DNA of 64,000 nt from Trichormus sp. ATA11-4-KO1. GTDB taxonomy: Bacteria; Cyanobacteriota; Cyanobacteriia; Cyanobacteriales; Nostocaceae. Shown one piece after another: positions 12,718 through 20,574 of this stretch; within the stretch, counting starts at the first letter, position 1, and the number at the start of each line of letters is the position of its first letter. The position numbers and the translations under genes are program-made. The notes under the pieces were generated by a model that saw nothing but the letters and a program-made list of their open reading frames with translations, had not been told where the DNA came from and did not search any database. The stretch covers positions 10,202 through 74,201 of the forward strand of contig JAHHIM010000024.1 of assembly GCA_019358915.1 (NCBI GenBank), written 5' to 3'.

Positions 12718-14064
12718 TTAATCTATCGATAAAAAATCTTCAGATGTGGTGGGATGAATGCCTATGGTTTCATGCAAATCTTTCTTGGTAATTCCCTTAC
12801 GAATTGCCACCCCTAAAGTTTGAATAATTTCGGCTGCATCTCCACCTAGCATATGAGCACCCAAAACTTGTTGAGAATCTTCATTTACTACTAACTTCAT
12901 CATCACTGCCTCATCTTGTTCGGTTAACTGATAAAACAATGGTTGAAAACGAGTGCAGTAACATTTCACAGATGCACCAAATTTTTCCCGTGCTTTAGCT
13001 TCTGTCATTCCTACACCAGCACCTTCGGGACGGGAAAACACAGCAGAAGGCACATAATCATAATTTACTTTTTGTGGCTGGTTGCCAAAAACCGTATGAG
13101 CAACGGCAATACCTTCAGCCTTCGCAACTGGAGTTAATTGCACACGGTTGATGCAGTCACCCACAGCATAAATATTTTTTTGGGTAGTGCAGCAGTATTC
13201 ATCTACTTTGATTTCACCCTGCTTACCAAGTGCAACTTGGGCTGTTTCTAAACCCAGATTTTGAGTATTGGGGGTGTAACCTGTGGCTACAAGAATGGTA
13301 TCTGCGGCAATAGTTTCTGAACAATCGCCAGTAGTCTTCAACAGTAAACCATCATCTAAGAGTGTAATTGCTTGAGCAGTGCTGTTAGTTAAAACCCGAA
13401 TTCCTCGTTTGCTTAAACCTCGTTGCACGCCAGAGCGGATTTCGTCATCAAATCCTGATAACATCATCTCATCTGTTTCGATTACTGTGACTTCGCAACC
13501 TAAAGCCTGCATCATGCTAGAAAATTCTGCCCCGATGTAGCCACCCCCAATAATTGCCAACCGTTTTGGCAAATAAGGTAAGTGAAATACCTCACGGGAT
13601 GTAATGGCATATTCTATTCCGGGAATGCTGGGCTTTTTAGCACGTCCACCCACAGCAATTAAAATTTTATCAGCTGTAACTTTGTGTCCACCTACATCTA
13701 GGGTATGGGCATCGCTGAGTACAGCGTGTTCTTTAATTATTTCAATTCCGGCGTTTTGTAACTGCTCACAATAAGAGTAGTGAATGTGTTCTAAATGTCG
13801 GTGTACGGACTTCATAAATAGTGTCCAGTCAAAGTAGCGTTTACACTTACTCCAACCGTAGCAATGTGCTATTTCATTTTCTTGAGCAAAATCAGCTGCA
13901 TAGACAATCAATTTTTTGGGAACACAACCACGATTTACACAAGTACCACCAATAGCTTCCTGTTCAGCAACAGCAACACGGACACCGTAACTAGCTGCTT
14001 TTTTAGCTGCTGCCAACCCTCCAGGCCCAGCACCGATGACAAACAAGTCGTAATCAAATGTCAT
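12718..14064 (-). CDS. gor: Glutathione-disulfide reductase family flavoprotein
   Basis: YDLFVIGAGPGG, GGTCVNRGCVPKK redox disulfide, GGGYIG and C-terminal IGIHPTTSE. Confidence 0.85.
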   Translation of the reverse strand: MTFDYDLFVIGAGPGGLAAAKKAASYGVRVAVAEQEAIGGTCVNRGCVPKKLIVYAADFAQENEIAHCYGWSKCKRYFDWTLFMKSVHRHLEHIHYSYCEQLQNAGIEIIKEHAVLSDAHTLDVGGHKVTADKILIAVGGRAKKPSIPGIEYAITSREVFHLPYLPKRLAIIGGGYIGAEFSSMMQALGCEVTVIETDEMMLSGFDDEIRSGVQRGLSKRGIRVLTNSTAQAITLLDDGLLLKTTGDCSETIAADTILVATGYTPNTQNLGLETAQVALGKQGEIKVDEYCCTTQKNIYAVGDCINRVQLTPVAKAEGIAVAHTVFGNQPQKVNYDYVPSAVFSRPEGAGVGMTEAKAREKFGASVKCYCTRFQPLFYQLTEQDEAVMMKLVVNEDSQQVLGAHMLGGDAAEIIQTLGVAIRKGITKKDLHETIGIHPTTSEDFLSID

Positions 14065-14474
14065 AAAAATCTGTTCCTTTTTAAGTGTTTGCAAAGCAGC
14101 GCTATTTTATCTCTTATAGTTATTTAGCTAATATTTTATCTACTGTCTTTGGGTGGATCAAAATTACTGAAGGTTTAGATGTATAATCTGTCATTTATAC
14201 TCACTAATGACATATTTTCAACAAATTTATAACTTGAGTAGGATAGTTATCTGGCTAGCGACAGGTATCTTGAGGAAGGTTAAGCCGACATCTATTGTCT
14301 AGATGAGGTAGAGGGCAGCAAAACCCAGCATATACAAGATTTTGCAAAGTTGGGTTATCCTAAGATTTAGGCTAAATCTACTTGTCTCGATCCAATTTAT
14401 ATTTTTCGCGATCGCGTTTCCCGTTGTTATTACGTGATTTTACAGAAATTACTGTAGTGCAAGGATAAAAATTT

Positions 14475-15353
14475 ATGTATACAGTTCTGCAAAAAATGCG
14501 GAATAAGATTTTAAGGGAAATTGATGCCATACCATTTATACAGTATCAAGAAGAACTTGCTTATCAAGCAGCAGTAGAAAAACATATTATAAATTTACCT
14601 ATTCTTTCCAAGAATGACTTAAATTTAGTCGAAACAATTAACCATGAAGGAGTTGCAGTTACTTCATTAGCAGAATTGGGCATTCCATCTACTCTTGAGA
14701 TACTTAAAGCAGCAAAAGACCTGATGCCAAAAATCCCACCAAAGATTTCTGGTCATAAAAATGAGTTTGTTGTTCATGCTAATTCCCAGCAAATAATGCA
14801 GTATCCAGAAATTTTCTTGTGGGGTCTGGAACAACGTTTACTCAACATTATAGAGAATTATTTGGGTTTACCAGTAGCCTATAATGGGGTCTATTTCCGT
14901 AGAGACATTGCCAATCAAGTCGAGCAAACTTCTAGGCTGTGGCATGTAGACAGAGAAAATCAAAAAATATTGAAAATTATAATTTATTTAAATGATATTA
15001 ATGAGGATACAGGGCCATTTCAATATGTTACACAAACTTTAACTTCAAAAATTACCAAATCTTTAAAATATACATCTGGCTACATCCAAGCACAAACTAT
15101 GCAAGATGTTTTATCCGCAGAACATTATAAATCATGTACAGGACCCGCAGGCACTGTAATTTTTGCTGCTACTGGGAGCATTTTTCATCGCGGTAAGATA
15201 CCTATAGCTTCTGATAGGTTTGCTATATTTTTTGATTACAGTTCTAGAAGAAAAAGAAAAAGTTTTTATGGGACAAATTCTCTATCATATAAAGATTTGG
15301 TATTACTCACCAAAAATCTTCCAGAACAAAAAAAGCAGTGTGTTTTTTGTTAA
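14475..15353 (+). CDS. 2OG-Fe(II)/PhyH-like dioxygenase
   Basis: WHVD (HxD) ... IIYLND ... GPF ... GPAGTVIF ... FHRG facial-triad pattern. Confidence 0.7.
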   Translation: MYTVLQKMRNKILREIDAIPFIQYQEELAYQAAVEKHIINLPILSKNDLNLVETINHEGVAVTSLAELGIPSTLEILKAAKDLMPKIPPKISGHKNEFVVHANSQQIMQYPEIFLWGLEQRLLNIIENYLGLPVAYNGVYFRRDIANQVEQTSRLWHVDRENQKILKIIIYLNDINEDTGPFQYVTQTLTSKITKSLKYTSGYIQAQTMQDVLSAEHYKSCTGPAGTVIFAATGSIFHRGKIPIASDRFAIFFDYSSRRKRKSFYGTNSLSYKDLVLLTKNLPEQKKQCVFC

Positions 15354-15616
15354 GAAGGAACAATTGAAAATAATTTAGCAGCATTACATTTAGAAGAACG
15401 TCCTCTACGGGGAGAATCTAATATCGCTTTAAAGGTCGGACAAGTTCTTAACCGTTACAAAGTTGGGAAACATTTTAAAATTTATATTAAAGCTGATAGC
15501 TTTTCATTTGAAAGAGATATACAAAAAATCGCATCAGAAGCGGCTTTAGATGGCTCATACATCATTCGTACATCTGTAGCACCTAAAATTTTATCTGCTG
15601 AAGATACTGTCAAGAT
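15354..15616 (+). pseudogene. IS1634-family transposase internal fragment
   Basis: Startless frame translates RPLRGESNIALKVGQVLNRYKVGKHFKI...SFSFERD...IASEAALDGSYIIRTSV...LSAEDTV, which resembles IS1634 transposases. Confidence 0.75.
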
Positions 15617-15648
15617 GGTGCGTTGTTGCACCGCGCAACGCACCCTAC
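15617..15648 (-). repeat. REP-like palindrome (GTAG-GGTGCGTTG...CAACGCACC)
   Basis: GTAG tetranucleotide followed by a 9-bp stem; lies at the end of the transposase homology. Confidence 0.65.
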
Positions 15649-15680
15649 TGGCGTGGTAAGGCTTACTAGTTTTGCCAGCA

Positions 15681-16058
15681 TTACCAACCACGTACACCCA
15701 TTCTTTGACAAACAATTTGCATTGCTTTACCTGGTGAAGAAGCGGCTACAAAAGGGATTTCGCCAGTATTGCGCTCTTGTTGAATTATTTGTCCACTAGT
15801 CCCGTAAATAGTAATGTTATTTAAAAAAAGCCGAGATTCTTGGCACGATGCAGAGAACGTAGTCTCAAATATACCGTCTCCATACATTCCGTAAAGTTTG
15901 TATGTCGTGCCTTTAATAGTTTCTGTATCCAGGGCTATATGGTTTCCTACCTTATCATGCCCCACGGTGATATACCTTTCTGCATCTTGAGCATTTACTA
16001 TACTACTGCTCAACAAAACAGCGATCGCTCCCACTATACTGCCTAGTTTAAAAAACAT
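15681..16058 (-). CDS. Small secreted hypothetical protein
   Basis: Signal-peptide-like N-terminus (MFFKLGSIVGAIAVLLSSSIVNA), two Cys. Confidence 0.7.
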   Translation of the reverse strand: MFFKLGSIVGAIAVLLSSSIVNAQDAERYITVGHDKVGNHIALDTETIKGTTYKLYGMYGDGIFETTFSASCQESRLFLNNITIYGTSGQIIQQERNTGEIPFVAASSPGKAMQIVCQRMGVRGW

Positions 16059-16296
16059 GAGTTTGCAAGTCTAAGATTTACATCTTTTTAGCCTTAATCA
16101 AAACAGTTATGGCACGGTATAAGCACCGAATATTAGATGCATCTCTCACCTAAAGACCAAAATCAACTAGTATGAGAAGTCAAAGATAATGCACACAAAC
16201 TTTGAGGATTTTGGCAGGCGATCGCAGTTAAAGTTTTCGCTGTAACAAAATTTGTATACAAATACATTCAAACTAACAAGTTACTCACCTTTTATG

Positions 16297-16349
16297 AAAA
16301 AAGGCCTGGCTAAGCCAAGCCCTGATGTATACCAAGCATTTACTACACC
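16297..16349 (-). ncRNA. Putative sRNA, cassette 1
   Basis: GGTGTAGTAAATGCTTGGTATACATCA-GGGCTTGGC-TTA-GCCAGGCC-T6; -10 TAAATT at 16356-16361; box CACATCC-TTTA-GGAGGATG at 16382-16400; TSS inferred. Confidence 0.55.
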
Positions 16350-16444
16350 AAGATTAATTTAAAGCTTCTATTCCTTTAGTTCATCCTCCTAAAGGATGTG
16401 TGCAAACAGCCTGATAACTGATAATAAATGACTTGATTACTCAT

Positions 16445-16500
16445 AAAAAAAGGTTCGGTTGTGAACCAAACCTCAATAATTGTTGTGCTTAACAACGTAC
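16445..16500 (-). ncRNA. Putative sRNA, cassette 2
   Basis: GTACGTTGTTAAGCACAACAATTATTG-AGGTTTGGTT-CAC-AACCGAACCT-T6; -10 TAAATT at 16507-16512; box TACATCC-CAAA-GGAAGATG at 16533-16551. Confidence 0.55.
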
Positions 16501-16649
16501 TAAATTAATTTAAACCTACTATTTTCGCAGTTCATCTTCCTTTGGGATGTACCCAAATTTTTCGGAAACTGTTAAGTCATGATTTTGTTAAAATATTCAC
16601 TATTTCCTATTACGTAAAGTCAATATTTAAGCTGTATATCAAAAGAATG

Positions 16650-16702
16650 AAAAAGGCTTGGGCAAGAGCCAAGCCTTTATGTATACCAGGTGTTTACCAT
16701 AT
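16650..16702 (-). ncRNA. Putative sRNA, cassette 3
   Basis: ATATGGTAAACACCTGGTATACATA-AAGGCTTGG-CTCTTGC-CCAAGCCTT-TTT; -10 TAAATT at 16709-16714; box CACATCT-TTAA-GGCAGATG at 16735-16753. Confidence 0.55.
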
Positions 16703-16877
16703 CTAGATAATTTATCTGCAATTTGTTATTAATTCATCTGCCTTAAAGATGTGTACAAATATTCTCAAAGCTGATATGCAGCATCGCACATAACTAAATA
16801 AATCTCTATAAACCTATTCATACTTTGGTGAGATGTCATTTTGCTATAACCAATATCTCACGAGACTTAATTTACCC

Positions 16878-16934
16878 AAAAAGAAAACCCTGGCTTGATT
16901 TCCAGGGCATATATGTATTTTTCAAGCATTAATA
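16878..16934 (-). ncRNA. Putative sRNA, cassette 4 (most diverged)
   Basis: TATTAATGCTTGAAAAATACATATATG-CCCTGG-AAATCAAG-CCAGGG-TTTTCTTTTT; -10 TAATAT at 16941-16946; box ATCCTTC-TATA-GATAGGGG at 16967-16985. Confidence 0.4.
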
Positions 16935-17090
16935 GTCCGAATATTAACTGCACAAAAAGTTTGTTGCCCCTATCTATAGAAGGATATAAGATCAATACTA
17001 TTTATGCTAGTTCTAGAAATTTAATTTTTTGTCAATTAATTAAAAACCTTAATATGTAGTGCTACTTGTTGATTATTTCTCTTTTTTTAC

Positions 17091-17142
17091 AAAAGAGGCT
17101 TGGCTATTAGCCAAGCCTCTCTATACCAAGAGTTTACCATAC
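17091..17142 (-). ncRNA. Putative sRNA, cassette 5
   Basis: GTATGGTAAACTCTTGGTATAG-AGAGGCTTGGCT-AAT-AGCCAAGCCTCT-TTT; -10 TAAACT at 17149-17154; box CACAACC-TTTA-GATAGATG at 17175-17193. Confidence 0.55.
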
Positions 17143-17455
17143 CTGGTTAGTTTAAATATGCTATTACTTAAGTTCATCTATCTAAAGGTTGTGTCCAGAT
17201 ATTATAAAAGCTGCTAGGGGCTGATTCAGATTACTATAATCAATAAAAGCTAACTATCTACTAGATGTTTGATATAATACTAATTACAGAAAAAATTTTA
17301 TCTGTATAATTTATGTTTACTAAATAGAAAATTTAGTGATTTTATTGACTATATTGTTTTTGATAATACACATAAATTTAAAATATTAGATTTTTAATGA
17401 TACTAAAAGCAGAAAAATATAGTATATAATTTTAGAAGCTAAATTGATAACATAT

Positions 17456-17505
17456 AAAAAAGGCTTGGTTCACTGCCAAGCCTTAAGTAGAAGTAGAATC
17501 TATAC
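17456..17505 (-). ncRNA. Putative sRNA, cassette 6
   Basis: GTATAGATTCTACTTCTACTT-AAGGCTTGG-CAGTGAA-CCAAGCCTT-TTTT; -10 TAAATT at 17511-17516; box TACTCTC-TATT-GGATGATG at 17537-17555. Confidence 0.5.
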
Positions 17506-17593
17506 AGCATAATTTAGCTATTTAAGTTAAATGATTCATCATCCAATAGAGAGTATACAAATATTCTAGAAGCTGATACAGCAGTAACTCATG

Positions 17594-17647
17594 AAAAAGG
17601 TTTAGCTAAATGCTAAACCTCCATAGAAAGCAGTTATTCGACACACC
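17594..17647 (-). ncRNA. Putative sRNA, cassette 7
   Basis: GGTGTGTCGAATAACTGCTTTCTATGG-AGGTTTAGC-ATTTA-GCTAAACCT-TTTT; -10 TAAATT at 17654-17659; box CACATCC-GCTA-GGAAGATG at 17680-17698. Confidence 0.55.
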
Positions 17648-17898
17648 AAAATTAATTTAAACCTTCTATTTCTTGAGGTCATCTTCCTAGCGGATGTGTG
17701 CAAGTATGTTGCCATATGATATGTCATTAACTTGACAAACCTTGATAGGAAGTCGTGTTAAATTATGGCGCTGCTGAGTGCAAGGATGATTAATCTCACG
17801 CAGAGGAGCCACAACGTTGGGTAGGTTCCCCGACTTGTAGCAAGTGGCGATCGCACAAGTGCAGAGAATAAGATTCTTTATCTAAAATCTTAAAAAGC

Positions 17899-17988
17899 TA
17901 CTGGGTCTAGTTTCCACTTAACGCAACGCCTAGCTAACAGCAAAACTGTAAACCCGTCGTCAAATTAACACAAAAACTAGACCCAGTA
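17899..17988 (-). terminator. Long-loop inverted repeat just downstream of the cpc operon (possible 3' stabiliser or terminator)
   Basis: Perfect 15-bp arms TACTGGGTCTAGTTT (17899-17913) and AAACTAGACCCAGTA (17974-17988). Confidence 0.45.
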
Positions 17989-18016
17989 TAAAATGTAGTC
18001 AATCAGAGTTTAAATC

Positions 18017-18784
18017 TTAGCGTCTGCTACCACCACGGTAAGGCACTGCATTGAGATAATCAATATCAAATGCAGAAAGCTTTTGTGCGTAGTTACCGTT
18101 ACCACTAACTGATGCTGCCATATCCGCATACTTGCGAGGATCACCTTCAGCGAGGCGTTTTTCTTGGAATTTGCGGGTGTAGAATTTCTCCAAAGTAAAG
18201 CGCCAATCGGTTCGGACTGTACCCACTTTTTCTTGGAAGTCTTCGCCGTAGCGGGGAGTTACCAAGTTGTAGGGGCGACCTTCTAAACGCTTGCGTTGGT
18301 AGGGTACGGTGTTGTCACCAAAACTTTGGGTGTACTCGTCGCTATCCACTAGGGCATCAACGAAGCCGCCAAAACCTTTGGTAGCAATAACAATTGACCA
18401 AGCAATTTGTTCGTCTTTGTTGTAAGACGAACGTCCTAACAAACGCTTCAGGGTAATGTCTACTAAACGGTAGTTGTTGTTAACCGAAACTACCAAGCGA
18501 TAGAATGCTTCAGACTTAGCTAGACCTCGGATGAAGTCCCGTACTGATAATGAACCAGTTTTCAGTTGAGATTCCAGAGTCTTTTGGCGGTTGAACTTGA
18601 GAATTTCATGTTCGCTGAAAACTTGGCGATAAGCAGCCCAAGTTATGCTTTGAATATCAGTGTAGGAACTGACATCTTCCAGACGATAGATATAAGGTGT
18701 ATCTTCATTCTGGTCAGCTACGCCAAAGCTTTTGACTCGATGATTTTGACTACTGGGTTTGTATTGAAGTAATGGCAGTGCCAT
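18017..18784 (-). CDS. cpcG4: Phycobilisome rod-core linker CpcG (CpcG4-like)
   Basis: [41 protein letters not shown]; last gene of the cpc operon. Confidence 0.85.
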
Positions 18785-18937
18785 GCTGCGTTCTTCCTCT
18801 TATTAACAAATTAAACAAAAAACTAGCTCTGAAAATGGAAGGAGGTTTGATTACTCAAAATTCTCATTCCGGCTTTACTTATTCTCCCGCATTTATGTTA
18901 GTAGCCGGAGCTGATTCCAAACCAATTTAGTATCAAT

Positions 18938-19681
18938 TTACCGTACAGGGAAATTGGCGCTGGAATCGATAGAAACAGGAACACCTTGCGGTTTAGTGTT
19001 TCTTGTCATGTCAGGAATTTGGATGTTTGCCAGGTTAACTGGTGTGTAGACAACTGTCTTGATTTCGATAGAACTGGCTAATTCCAAGAAATTCTTGATA
19101 TCGCCTGATTTATACCGCGCATCTTCTAACTTGTCACGCCAGTAGTCACCGTAGCGGGGTGTCACTAGATTAAAGGGTCTATCTTGGAAACGCCGCCGTT
19201 GGTAGGGAACGATATTTTCCCCAAAGTTGGTTTGATACTCTTGAGAGTCGATCAAAGCATCAACAAATCCATTCCAACCGAGAGTGGCTATCTTGATTGA
19301 CCAAGCAATCTCTTCGTCTTTGTTATAAGATGCACGACCTAAAAGTCGTTTGAGGGCAATTTCTACGAGGCGATAGTTGGAGTTGGTTTGTACTACTAAA
19401 TTCCGCAAGGCTTCGGATTTAGCCAAACCCCGGATGAAGTCCCGCACAGTAATTGCTCTATTCTTTACCTGAGATTCTAAATTGCTCTGGCGGTAGAATT
19501 TCAGGATTTCATGTTCGCTAAAAACCTGCCGATAGGCTGCCCAAATTAACTCTTGGATTTCACCATCAAAGGCATAGTCTTCAATGCGGTAAATTCTGGG
19601 GGTATCTTCGTTAGGTACTTCGTAACCAGGGACGCGTTGGTTTTGGGAACTAGGTTTATATTGCAGTAAAGGGATTGCCAT
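18938..19681 (-). CDS. cpcG2: Phycobilisome rod-core linker CpcG (CpcG2-like)
   Basis: [17 protein letters not shown] and PBS linker domain; 247 aa. Confidence 0.85.
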   Translation of the reverse strand: MAIPLLQYKPSSQNQRVPGYEVPNEDTPRIYRIEDYAFDGEIQELIWAAYRQVFSEHEILKFYRQSNLESQVKNRAITVRDFIRGLAKSEALRNLVVQTNSNYRLVEIALKRLLGRASYNKDEEIAWSIKIATLGWNGFVDALIDSQEYQTNFGENIVPYQRRRFQDRPFNLVTPRYGDYWRDKLEDARYKSGDIKNFLELASSIEIKTVVYTPVNLANIQIPDMTRNTKPQGVPVSIDSSANFPVR

Positions 19682-19734
19682 AGTGGATGTGTGGGTGTGA
19701 GTTGGTCTTGGTCATTTGTCCCATGACTCATGCC

Positions 19735-20574
19735 TTAATTTGTCCGGGTTGCCGGAATGTAACGGTAAGGTAGGGACACGGCTGTGGGTTTCACGGTTGG
19801 TTGTGGAGTCCCAACTTCGCGGGAGTTGTCTGGAATCTCCATATCTTTGATTTGGGAAGTAACTGAAGCAATGGTGCGCTGGTAGTTACGTTCGTTGGTA
19901 ATCATCTTCCCTGCCATATCTAGGAAGTTGGCGGGAATTACCCGGCGAATCTCTTGTTGAGTGGCGTATCCTGTAGTGCGGGCGTTGTAGAAGGAACGAC
20001 CACCTAGATAAGTCATGGTTTGGCGATCGCGCCAGTAGGAATTGTAGCGGGGATTAACTAAGTTAAAGGGTCTGTCTTGGAAGCGACGGCGTTGAAAAGG
20101 TACGATGTCATCGCCAAAGTTTTGCAGGTACTCTTCGCTGTCTAAGAGACTATCAATGAAACCGTGCAATCCCTTGGTGCCAATCACAATCGACCAGGCA
20201 ATTTCCTCGTCTTTGTTGTAGGCAGCACGTCCTAAAAACCGTTTTAAGGTGATATCAACTAAGCGGTAGTTGGAGTTGAGTTCTGCTACCTGTGTCCGGT
20301 AAACTTCCGACTTGCCCAATCCCCGAATAAAATCGCGGACGTTAATAGCCCGATTTCGCAGTTGCGATTCTAAAAATTTTTGGCGATTGCTGTCGATAAT
20401 TAGATGTTCGCTGAAAATTTGCCGATATGCTGCCCAAATGATGGCATCAATATCTGTATCTGAGGTAGCAGCCGCCAACCGGTACATGATTGGTGTATCT
20501 TCGTTGGGTACTTCGTAGCCTTCTACACGTTGATTTTGCGAAGAGGGTGAATAATTCAGTAATGGTATTGACAT
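19735..20574 (-). CDS. cpcG1: Phycobilisome rod-core linker CpcG (CpcG1-like)
   Basis: MSIPLLNYSPSSQNQRV and PBS linker domain; 279 aa; first cpcG after cpcF. Confidence 0.85.
   Translation of the reverse strand: MSIPLLNYSPSSQNQRVEGYEVPNEDTPIMYRLAAATSDTDIDAIIWAAYRQIFSEHLIIDSNRQKFLESQLRNRAINVRDFIRGLGKSEVYRTQVAELNSNYRLVDITLKRFLGRAAYNKDEEIAWSIVIGTKGLHGFIDSLLDSEEYLQNFGDDIVPFQRRRFQDRPFNLVNPRYNSYWRDRQTMTYLGGRSFYNARTTGYATQQEIRRVIPANFLDMAGKMITNERNYQRTIASVTSQIKDMEIPDNSREVGTPQPTVKPTAVSLPYRYIPATRTN

Follow-up and report, generated by a model that had tools for sequence, protein, structure and literature searches.

An ordered array of predicted small-RNA genes with a common 42-bp promoter box in Nostocaceae

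Structure of the array

In the window analysed here (the whole stretch of 64,000 nucleotides from Trichormus sp. ATA11-4-KO1), the minus strand between 16297 and 17721 consists of seven cassettes, each with a promoter box, 20 nt, a -10 hexamer, an RNA of 49-56 nt, and a hairpin followed by a T-run. The gene upstream of the array encodes a phycobilisome linker (PF00427). The features are given below, with box scores from the promoter matrix described later and, for some RNAs, the score of the Rfam family RF02596 (cyano_het_sRNA).

17680..17721, minus: promoter box of cassette 7, 42 bp; 33.1 bits; -10 TAAATT at 17654-17659
17594..17647, minus: predicted sRNA type A, 54 nt including terminator; identity of the first 20 nt 0.994 over 42 copies; RF02596 29.0 bits
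17537..17578, minus: promoter box of cassette 6, 42 bp; 31.4 bits; -10 TAAATT at 17511-17516
17456..17504, minus: predicted sRNA type B, 49 nt with terminator; present in 8/21 array loci; basis, its fold
17175..17216, minus: promoter box of cassette 5, 42 bp; 41.7 bits; -10 TAAACT at 17149-17154
17091..17142, minus: predicted sRNA type C (variant C2), 52 nt including terminator; 16 C and 4 C2 copies; RF02596 32.6 bits
16967..17008, minus: divergent promoter box of cassette 4; rejected by the matrix (-49.4 bits); variant box shared by orthologues; -10 TAATAT at 16941-16946
16884..16934, minus: predicted sRNA type H, 51 nt, terminator sequence particular to this type; 23 orthologous copies at the same array position
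16735..16776, minus: promoter box of cassette 3, 42 bp; 41.2 bits; -10 TAAATT at 16709-16714
16650..16702, minus: predicted sRNA type D, 53 nt including terminator; no difference in the first 20 nt among 32 copies; RF02596 22.7 bits
16533..16574, minus: promoter box of cassette 2, 42 bp; 38.8 bits; -10 TAAATT at 16507-16512
16445..16500, minus: sRNA type E, 56 nt; orthologue of PCC 7120 5335648r
16382..16423, minus: promoter box of cassette 1, 42 bp; 42.9 bits; -10 TAAATT at 16356-16361
16297..16349, minus: sRNA type F, 53 nt; orthologue of PCC 7120 5335498r; 25 copies, 0.994 identical

The boxes of cassettes 1-7 end at 16382, 16533, 16735, 16967, 17175, 17537, and 17680, which agrees with the spacings of 151, 202, 232, 208, 362, and 143 nt in the original prediction. 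The coordinates also bear out its distance of exactly 20 nt from box to hexamer in 7/7 cassettes and its hexamers (TAAATT in five, TAAACT and TAATAT in one each). No ORF of 70 aa or more overlaps the array, as had been claimed, and the ATG within the box of cassette 1 is followed by AAC TAA and halts at codon 3. The description of the cassettes as independent, non-coding promoter-RNA-terminator units was likewise upheld. When up to 3 mismatches are allowed, the box plus 20 nt plus TAAATT matches the window 4 times, where 0.01 matches are expected (0/100 shuffles reach 4), and 227 of the 233 typed units terminate with a hairpin plus T-run. Two details needed revision. The box had been described as 19 nt long, and the conserved promoter element is actually 42 bp; it had also been assigned to all seven cassettes, which holds for six (31-43 bits) and fails for the degenerate box of cassette 4 (-49 bits).

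Beyond the array, a perfect 15-nt inverted repeat with 60 nt between its arms lies at 17899-17988, directly after the last cpcG gene; it is probably the 3' stem of the cpc operon. The RNA run X1 for this organism (share 0.05) gave coverage only at 18456-18800, within cpcG.

Types, order and distribution

In 18 relatives, the regions with weaker, clustered RF02596 matches were fetched, giving 20 loci; RF02596 itself scored above the cut-off in 19 of 61 genomes. The 5' parts of the RNAs sort into types A, B, C/C2, H, D, E, F, and G. Within a type, the first 20 nt are 0.978-1.0 identical (six types measured), against 0.59-0.72 in the promoter spacer. What had been called a variable segment thus differs among cassettes, yet is near-invariant between species. 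The order A-B-C-H-D-E-F-G is kept in 21/21 loci from 19 genomes, with units lost and never swapped. All eight types occur together in one relative, and the window has all but G.

Meanwhile, the flanking genes change from locus to locus. The neighbours differ in all 20 loci of the relatives, and among the loci compared, cpc genes flank the array in this window only; a tie to the cpc operon is not borne out. A phycobilisome link was rejected as well, the arrays of relatives being far from cpcG and a genome of the same genus having other upstream genes. In the relative G030, the array is a few kb from a tail tube-/sheath-like ORF cluster.

A 22-mer of type E is present as a single copy in 153 of 389 family genomes (control, 0), and within one large genus its occurrence is patchy. 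Scanning a genome collection with the promoter pattern gave at least 122 loci; among the matches listed, 108 precede a typed RNA, and the genera are Nostoc, Anabaena, Dolichospermum, Cylindrospermum, Nodularia, and their kin. Pattern matches in Rivularia were rejected as units. A search for distant homologues in 5 genomes lacking RF02596 gave 30 seed-like matches, none with box and terminator. A chlH tree places the 15 RNA-bearing genomes together on the same side of one branch (76/98).

Relation to RF02596 and other small RNAs

The original prediction matched the units to no known family. The Rfam search of the window, run at an E-value threshold, however, gave RF02596 matches on five units (32.6, 29.1, 29.0, 22.7, and 18.4 bits), all below the covariance-model cut-off of 35.7 bits, and four array units of relatives score 36.8-41.6 bits. 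The canonical RF02596 copy of this genome is on another contig (87.1 bits), and its promoter has the same box and hexamer. Array and RF02596 have both promoter and terminator in common, as seen from the box scores (31-43 bits in 6/7 boxes, background 9.0) and from the terminator alignment. The RF02596 gene resembles the array units in its 42-bp box, -10 hexamer, size, and terminator stem, and differs in standing alone and in having a 21-nt spacer. The 5' ends are also different: its invariant 5' sequence is not carried by the array units (16/23 nt in type E, 8-11 in the others). Judged by sequence, the array units are sub-threshold paralogues of RF02596. At L103:1500-1600, in a Nostoc MAG, an RF02596 gene has an intact promoter and a 3' half replaced by other sequence.

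Two of the units have orthologues among the RNAs of Nostoc PCC 7120. Table S3 of PMC4734099 contains 5335498r (row 260, 32 reads) and 5335648r, both with mapped starts, and 5335648r was validated by Northern blot. Their sequences correspond to cassettes 1 and 2, and they are 150 nt apart in PCC 7120 and 151 here. The Table S3 sequences fall one base short of their spans, so the mapped starts match the predicted ones at 16349 and 16500 to one base. From a sequence match with the same table, we infer that RF02596 is the PCC 7120 sRNA 4547237r, which was verified by Northern blot and primer extension and rises with culture density and long nitrogen starvation (PMC4734099). In PCC 7120, RF02596 and the counterparts of cassettes 1 and 2 have thus been shown to be transcribed (PMC4734099). 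The published raw reads, 121/9/12/5 for 5335648r, 8/4/9/11 for 5335498r, and 4/1/1/2 for 4547237r (PMC4734099), do not move together and so give no sign of joint regulation.

In the parts of PMC4734099 available, these three RNAs occupy separate rows that are not connected with each other, and neither a function nor an array context is stated for 4547237r; a motif search of its Table S3 gave no row for types A, B, C, or D. The PCC 7120 locus of 5335498r and 5335648r adjoins alr4448, not cpc, according to a row in the supplement of PMC10287535, and the accessible supplement of PMC11797042 has no relevant row. Three of the nine members were thus already listed, without function. In the accessible literature, with subscription papers outside the search, we found no description of the array, the common box, or their function. 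The novelty is partial because starts had already been mapped for both PCC 7120 orthologues (cassettes 1 and 2) and one was seen by Northern blot (PMC4734099).

The closest analogue is NsiR1, a set of tandem sRNAs of about 60 nt in heterocyst-forming cyanobacteria, each with its own promoter and terminator, in which divergent copies have different targets (PMC9045159, in the part available). The tandem arrangement and the promoter and terminator of each unit are alike. However, NsiR1 has mostly identical copies, a DIF1 promoter (TCCGGA), and a position upstream of hetF, whereas all copies differ here and each is frozen. The RF02399 (NsiR1) model has no match at 14000-20000 of the window and eight on other contigs, and TCCGGA is present at the true NsiR1 repeats of this genome and absent from the array boxes. 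Together with neighbours other than hetF, this agrees with the earlier statement that the array is not NsiR1. In the assembly, contig ends interrupt the true NsiR1 array (G000:C7:111639-112237 and C8:5-192), and a further copy lies at C6:86686-86736. NsrR1 is about 110 nt long and has an NtcA site over the -10 box (PMC6166021, accessible part); identity with it was rejected, since the units are 49-56 nt and the spacer upstream of the -10 hexamer is not conserved.

To our knowledge, LuxO drives essentially only the qrr genes. Sets of sibling sRNAs include Vibrio Qrr (4-5 members), Streptococcus csRNA (2-6), OmrA/B, and PrrF (PMC4211561, in the part available). Like these sets, whose members are tandem or dispersed, the array holds related predicted sRNAs under a putative common control, and it contains at least two related sRNA genes with promoter and terminator of their own, the mark of sibling sRNAs. 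Unlike these sets, which have 2-6 members close in sequence, the battery here has nine, with about five unrelated 5' classes and a strict order.

Promoter box and candidate targets

The promoter matrix was built solely from the common 42-bp element of 19 canonical RF02596 promoters. Over the 5.97-Mb genome, it gave 67 bits for the canonical RF02596 gene, 31-43 for six of the seven cassettes, and 9.0 for the next match. The box in this genome is confined to six cassettes and the stand-alone RF02596 gene. Cassette 4 is a genuine conserved unit despite its degenerate box, with 23 orthologues that have the divergent version. In the arrays of relatives, the spacer between box and hexamer is 20 nt in 67 of 69 boxes (boxes scoring >12), and in RF02596 promoters it is 21 nt in 60 of 68; the box end is at -33 from the start in both layouts (20+6+6 and 21+6+5). 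The common box suggests that the cassettes are co-regulated.

The logo of 161 array units reads ATC-N9-AAT, 10 nt, ATC-N9-GAT, equivalent to two T-N11-A sites. Of 235 units, 176 have T-N11-A at box positions 28/40 and 118 have it at 3/15, although the motif is short and other symmetries fit. T-N11-A with dyad symmetry is the LysR signature (PMC11495319, accessible part), LysR-activated promoters having a regulatory and an activation site, and the box may be read by a LysR-type activator. This family assignment is tentative because a TCC-N4-GGA palindrome overlaps the T-N11-A sites. None of the 7 LysR genes of the genome is adjacent to the RNA genes, and no regulator gene was found travelling with the array among the loci of relatives.

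Candidate mRNA targets were ranked by duplex score, without accessibility, over about 5,045 mechanically called ORF starts, and the leads were then checked in relatives. No perfect complement longer than 14 nt to the array RNAs exists in the genome, and wobble-tolerant pattern scans did not rise above reversed controls. The best leads, predicted from sequence, are a conserved gene for an 87-aa protein and sigA.

Type C2 pairs with the 87-aa gene over 15 contiguous nt that cover the Shine-Dalgarno sequence and the AUG (-22.1; next -17.0), better than 16/16 shuffles. The mean at this site is -20.4 in 19 RNA-bearing genomes and -17.7 in 11 others, and types D and C reach -14.1 and -11.7. Its product is a conserved cyanobacterial protein with 491 homologues, to which neither a name nor a Pfam family could be assigned. 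The gene (G000:C73:212263-212600, minus strand) has a conserved TTGACA promoter, and its spacer between Shine-Dalgarno sequence and AUG is unusually well conserved. Extra sites for H, E, A, and B upstream of it were rejected, being at or above its -35 box and not conserved.

Nucleotides 1-11 of type E pair perfectly with codons 4-8 of a sigma-70 gene (by Pfam), which we take to be sigA, the primary sigma factor. The first 22 nt of this gene (G000:C5:44094-44115, minus strand) are fixed in 378 of 389 family genomes, at synonymous sites too and regardless of the RNA; to judge from this, constraint beyond coding acts there. RF02596 and type E differ at this site at a wobble and at the bulged base. 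Within a single genome, most target ranks do not exceed chance; shuffles did better than the best score of E in 5/8 cases and than that of B in 3/8. Genomes that lack the RNAs conserve the 87-aa and sigma-factor sites to the same degree. For an RNA that does not vary, the targets should be either invariant or numerous; the two frozen sites fit this, without being proven by it.

A further candidate site for RF02596 and E is the GTG start of a hypothetical gene of 276 aa, where 3/8 shuffles match the best duplex of RF02596. The site is found in 12/18 RNA-bearing and 0/12 other genomes, plus 2/2 and 0/3. No family or name was obtained for the 87-aa and 276-aa hypothetical proteins. Just upstream of the 276-aa gene is a direct duplication of about 48 nt (G000:C65:25010-25110). 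In addition, psaK (type D) has -15.9 in RNA-bearing genomes and -7.8 in others, and the dps start (type B) -12.0 and -5.7. The contrasts for the 276-aa gene, psaK, and dps are confounded because the RNA-bearing genomes form one branch.

Other candidates were dropped. For type A, chlH gave -16.1 in RNA-bearing and -15.2 in other genomes, and the sites of type D in a pilin-like and a CheY-like gene are not conserved. A NarL-type regulator proposed for C, D, and F is a weak candidate, present in 7/19 RNA-bearing genomes, with the site in 4/6 close orthologues and 0/13 others. At G000:C17:21500-29400, a histidine kinase and NarL-type regulator pair lies within a tail tube-/sheath-like ORF cluster, presumably a contractile injection system. 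Pairing with tRNAs was rejected (as-good shuffles: A 2/60, RF02596 17/60, F 41/60), as was pairing among the sRNAs (best -12.9).

Proposed function and alternatives

With moderate confidence, we propose that the locus is an ordered battery of seven paralogous cassettes with one 42-bp box and one activator, whose predicted RNAs of 50-56 nt block translation by pairing. A jointly switched sRNA panel is likely because the box is exclusive to these genes and the 20-nt front end of each type is near-invariant across many nitrogen-fixing cyanobacteria. One ancestral cassette would have been duplicated, and the 5' part would then have diverged. A single activator, predicted to be of the LysR type, would switch the cassettes on together, its site having its centre at about -41 and a second half-site lying at about -66. 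By analogy with RF02596, activity may be expected in dense or starved cultures. The invariant front ends would pair with the start regions of different mRNAs and block their translation. The candidate sites are the Shine-Dalgarno sequence plus AUG in the 87-aa gene for C, C2, and D, codons 4-8 of sigA together with the GTG start of the 276-aa gene for E and RF02596, and a dps start for B. A much bolder version seems unlikely to us, namely a microRNA-like panel in which a dedicated activator has a regulon of only the nine sRNAs, each with a frozen 20-nt guide end of its own, and these jointly shut off translation of the primary sigma factor and other conserved genes in stationary or resting filaments, a developmental switch of the whole clade that was overlooked in PCC 7120.

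The analysis joins three orphan sRNAs of a 2016 screen and six unlisted ones in one putative regulon with a sharply defined operator. The clade includes the genetic model PCC 7120 and the bloom-forming Dolichospermum, Nodularia, Sphaerospermopsis, and Cuspidothrix. Since the 42-bp element stands solely before these genes, the regulator should be findable by one pull-down, and most of the panel could be removed by one deletion. If the proposal is true, nine co-promoted sRNAs would form a larger and more diversified set than the sibling sets in the accessible part of PMC4211561, and a clean case of sRNA families arising by cassette duplication.

Alternatively, genuine and jointly regulated RNAs could serve as ligands of proteins, as decoys or aptamers. 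The short 5' hairpin and common terminator would then bind one RNA-binding protein family, with one type per paralogue. Near-total invariance over 20-24 nt exceeds the usual seed length, and the lack of a long perfect complement in the genome (none above 14 nt), the small hairpin into which every 5' part folds, and the terminator stem sequence common to most types would suit such a role. Yet the hairpins formed by the 5' parts are weak, and the types do not all share a single-stranded motif (most pairs have a best ungapped identity of 7-11 nt). Moreover, C, D, and F differ mainly by wobble-neutral transitions, and NsiR1 works by pairing (PMC9045159, in the part available). We regard protein ligands as improbable, though worth keeping in mind.

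Co-regulated pairing sRNAs whose box is read by a non-LysR factor (a response regulator, another activator, or an alternative sigma factor), with a wider regulon including dps, are quite unlikely. This idea draws on the TCC-N4-GGA palindrome and on a related element 19-20 nt from a -10 hexamer between dps and a DCC1-like gene, seen in 20/30 loci and also in genomes without the RNAs. The full 42-bp matrix, however, misses the dps site, and a mixed model gave no further clear members (two at 21.5-21.7, against a best of 18.0 in the reversed-genome control). The dps/DCC1-like element of this genome (G000:C55:160675-160972) resembles the proximal half of the sRNA box and has a -10-like hexamer about 20 nt away on each strand.

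It is very doubtful that some units are near-leaderless mRNAs for micro-peptides (MVNTWY..., MLLCTGF...). An AUG is at nt 3-4 in C, C2, D, and RF02596, and the codon that distinguishes C, D, and C2 changes synonymously or conservatively. Nevertheless, such a start is missing from A, B, E, F, and H, synonymous positions do not vary within a type, and the frame lengths scatter, with 20 different peptides among the D copies and 44 among the RF02596 copies; the RNAcode column of the PMC4734099 table, as far as available, leaves these rows unflagged.

A mobile or selfish repeat, or a guide/spacer array of a defence system, is hardly credible: the cassette design is repeated and the flanking genes differ between genomes, but the hairpin pattern has 11 matches in the genome, of which 5 are these genes and the others have no T-run, plasmid matches are absent, phage matches are at chance level (E 0.4-5), 0/6 viral matches to the promoter pattern are units, no protein partner or conserved neighbour is nearby, and the 5' parts are invariant rather than strain-variable. 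Decayed MITE copies, which the original prediction had named as a possible refutation, do not account for the units, given a box confined to these genes, the few hairpin matches, and a type E that is single-copy in each of the 153 genomes.
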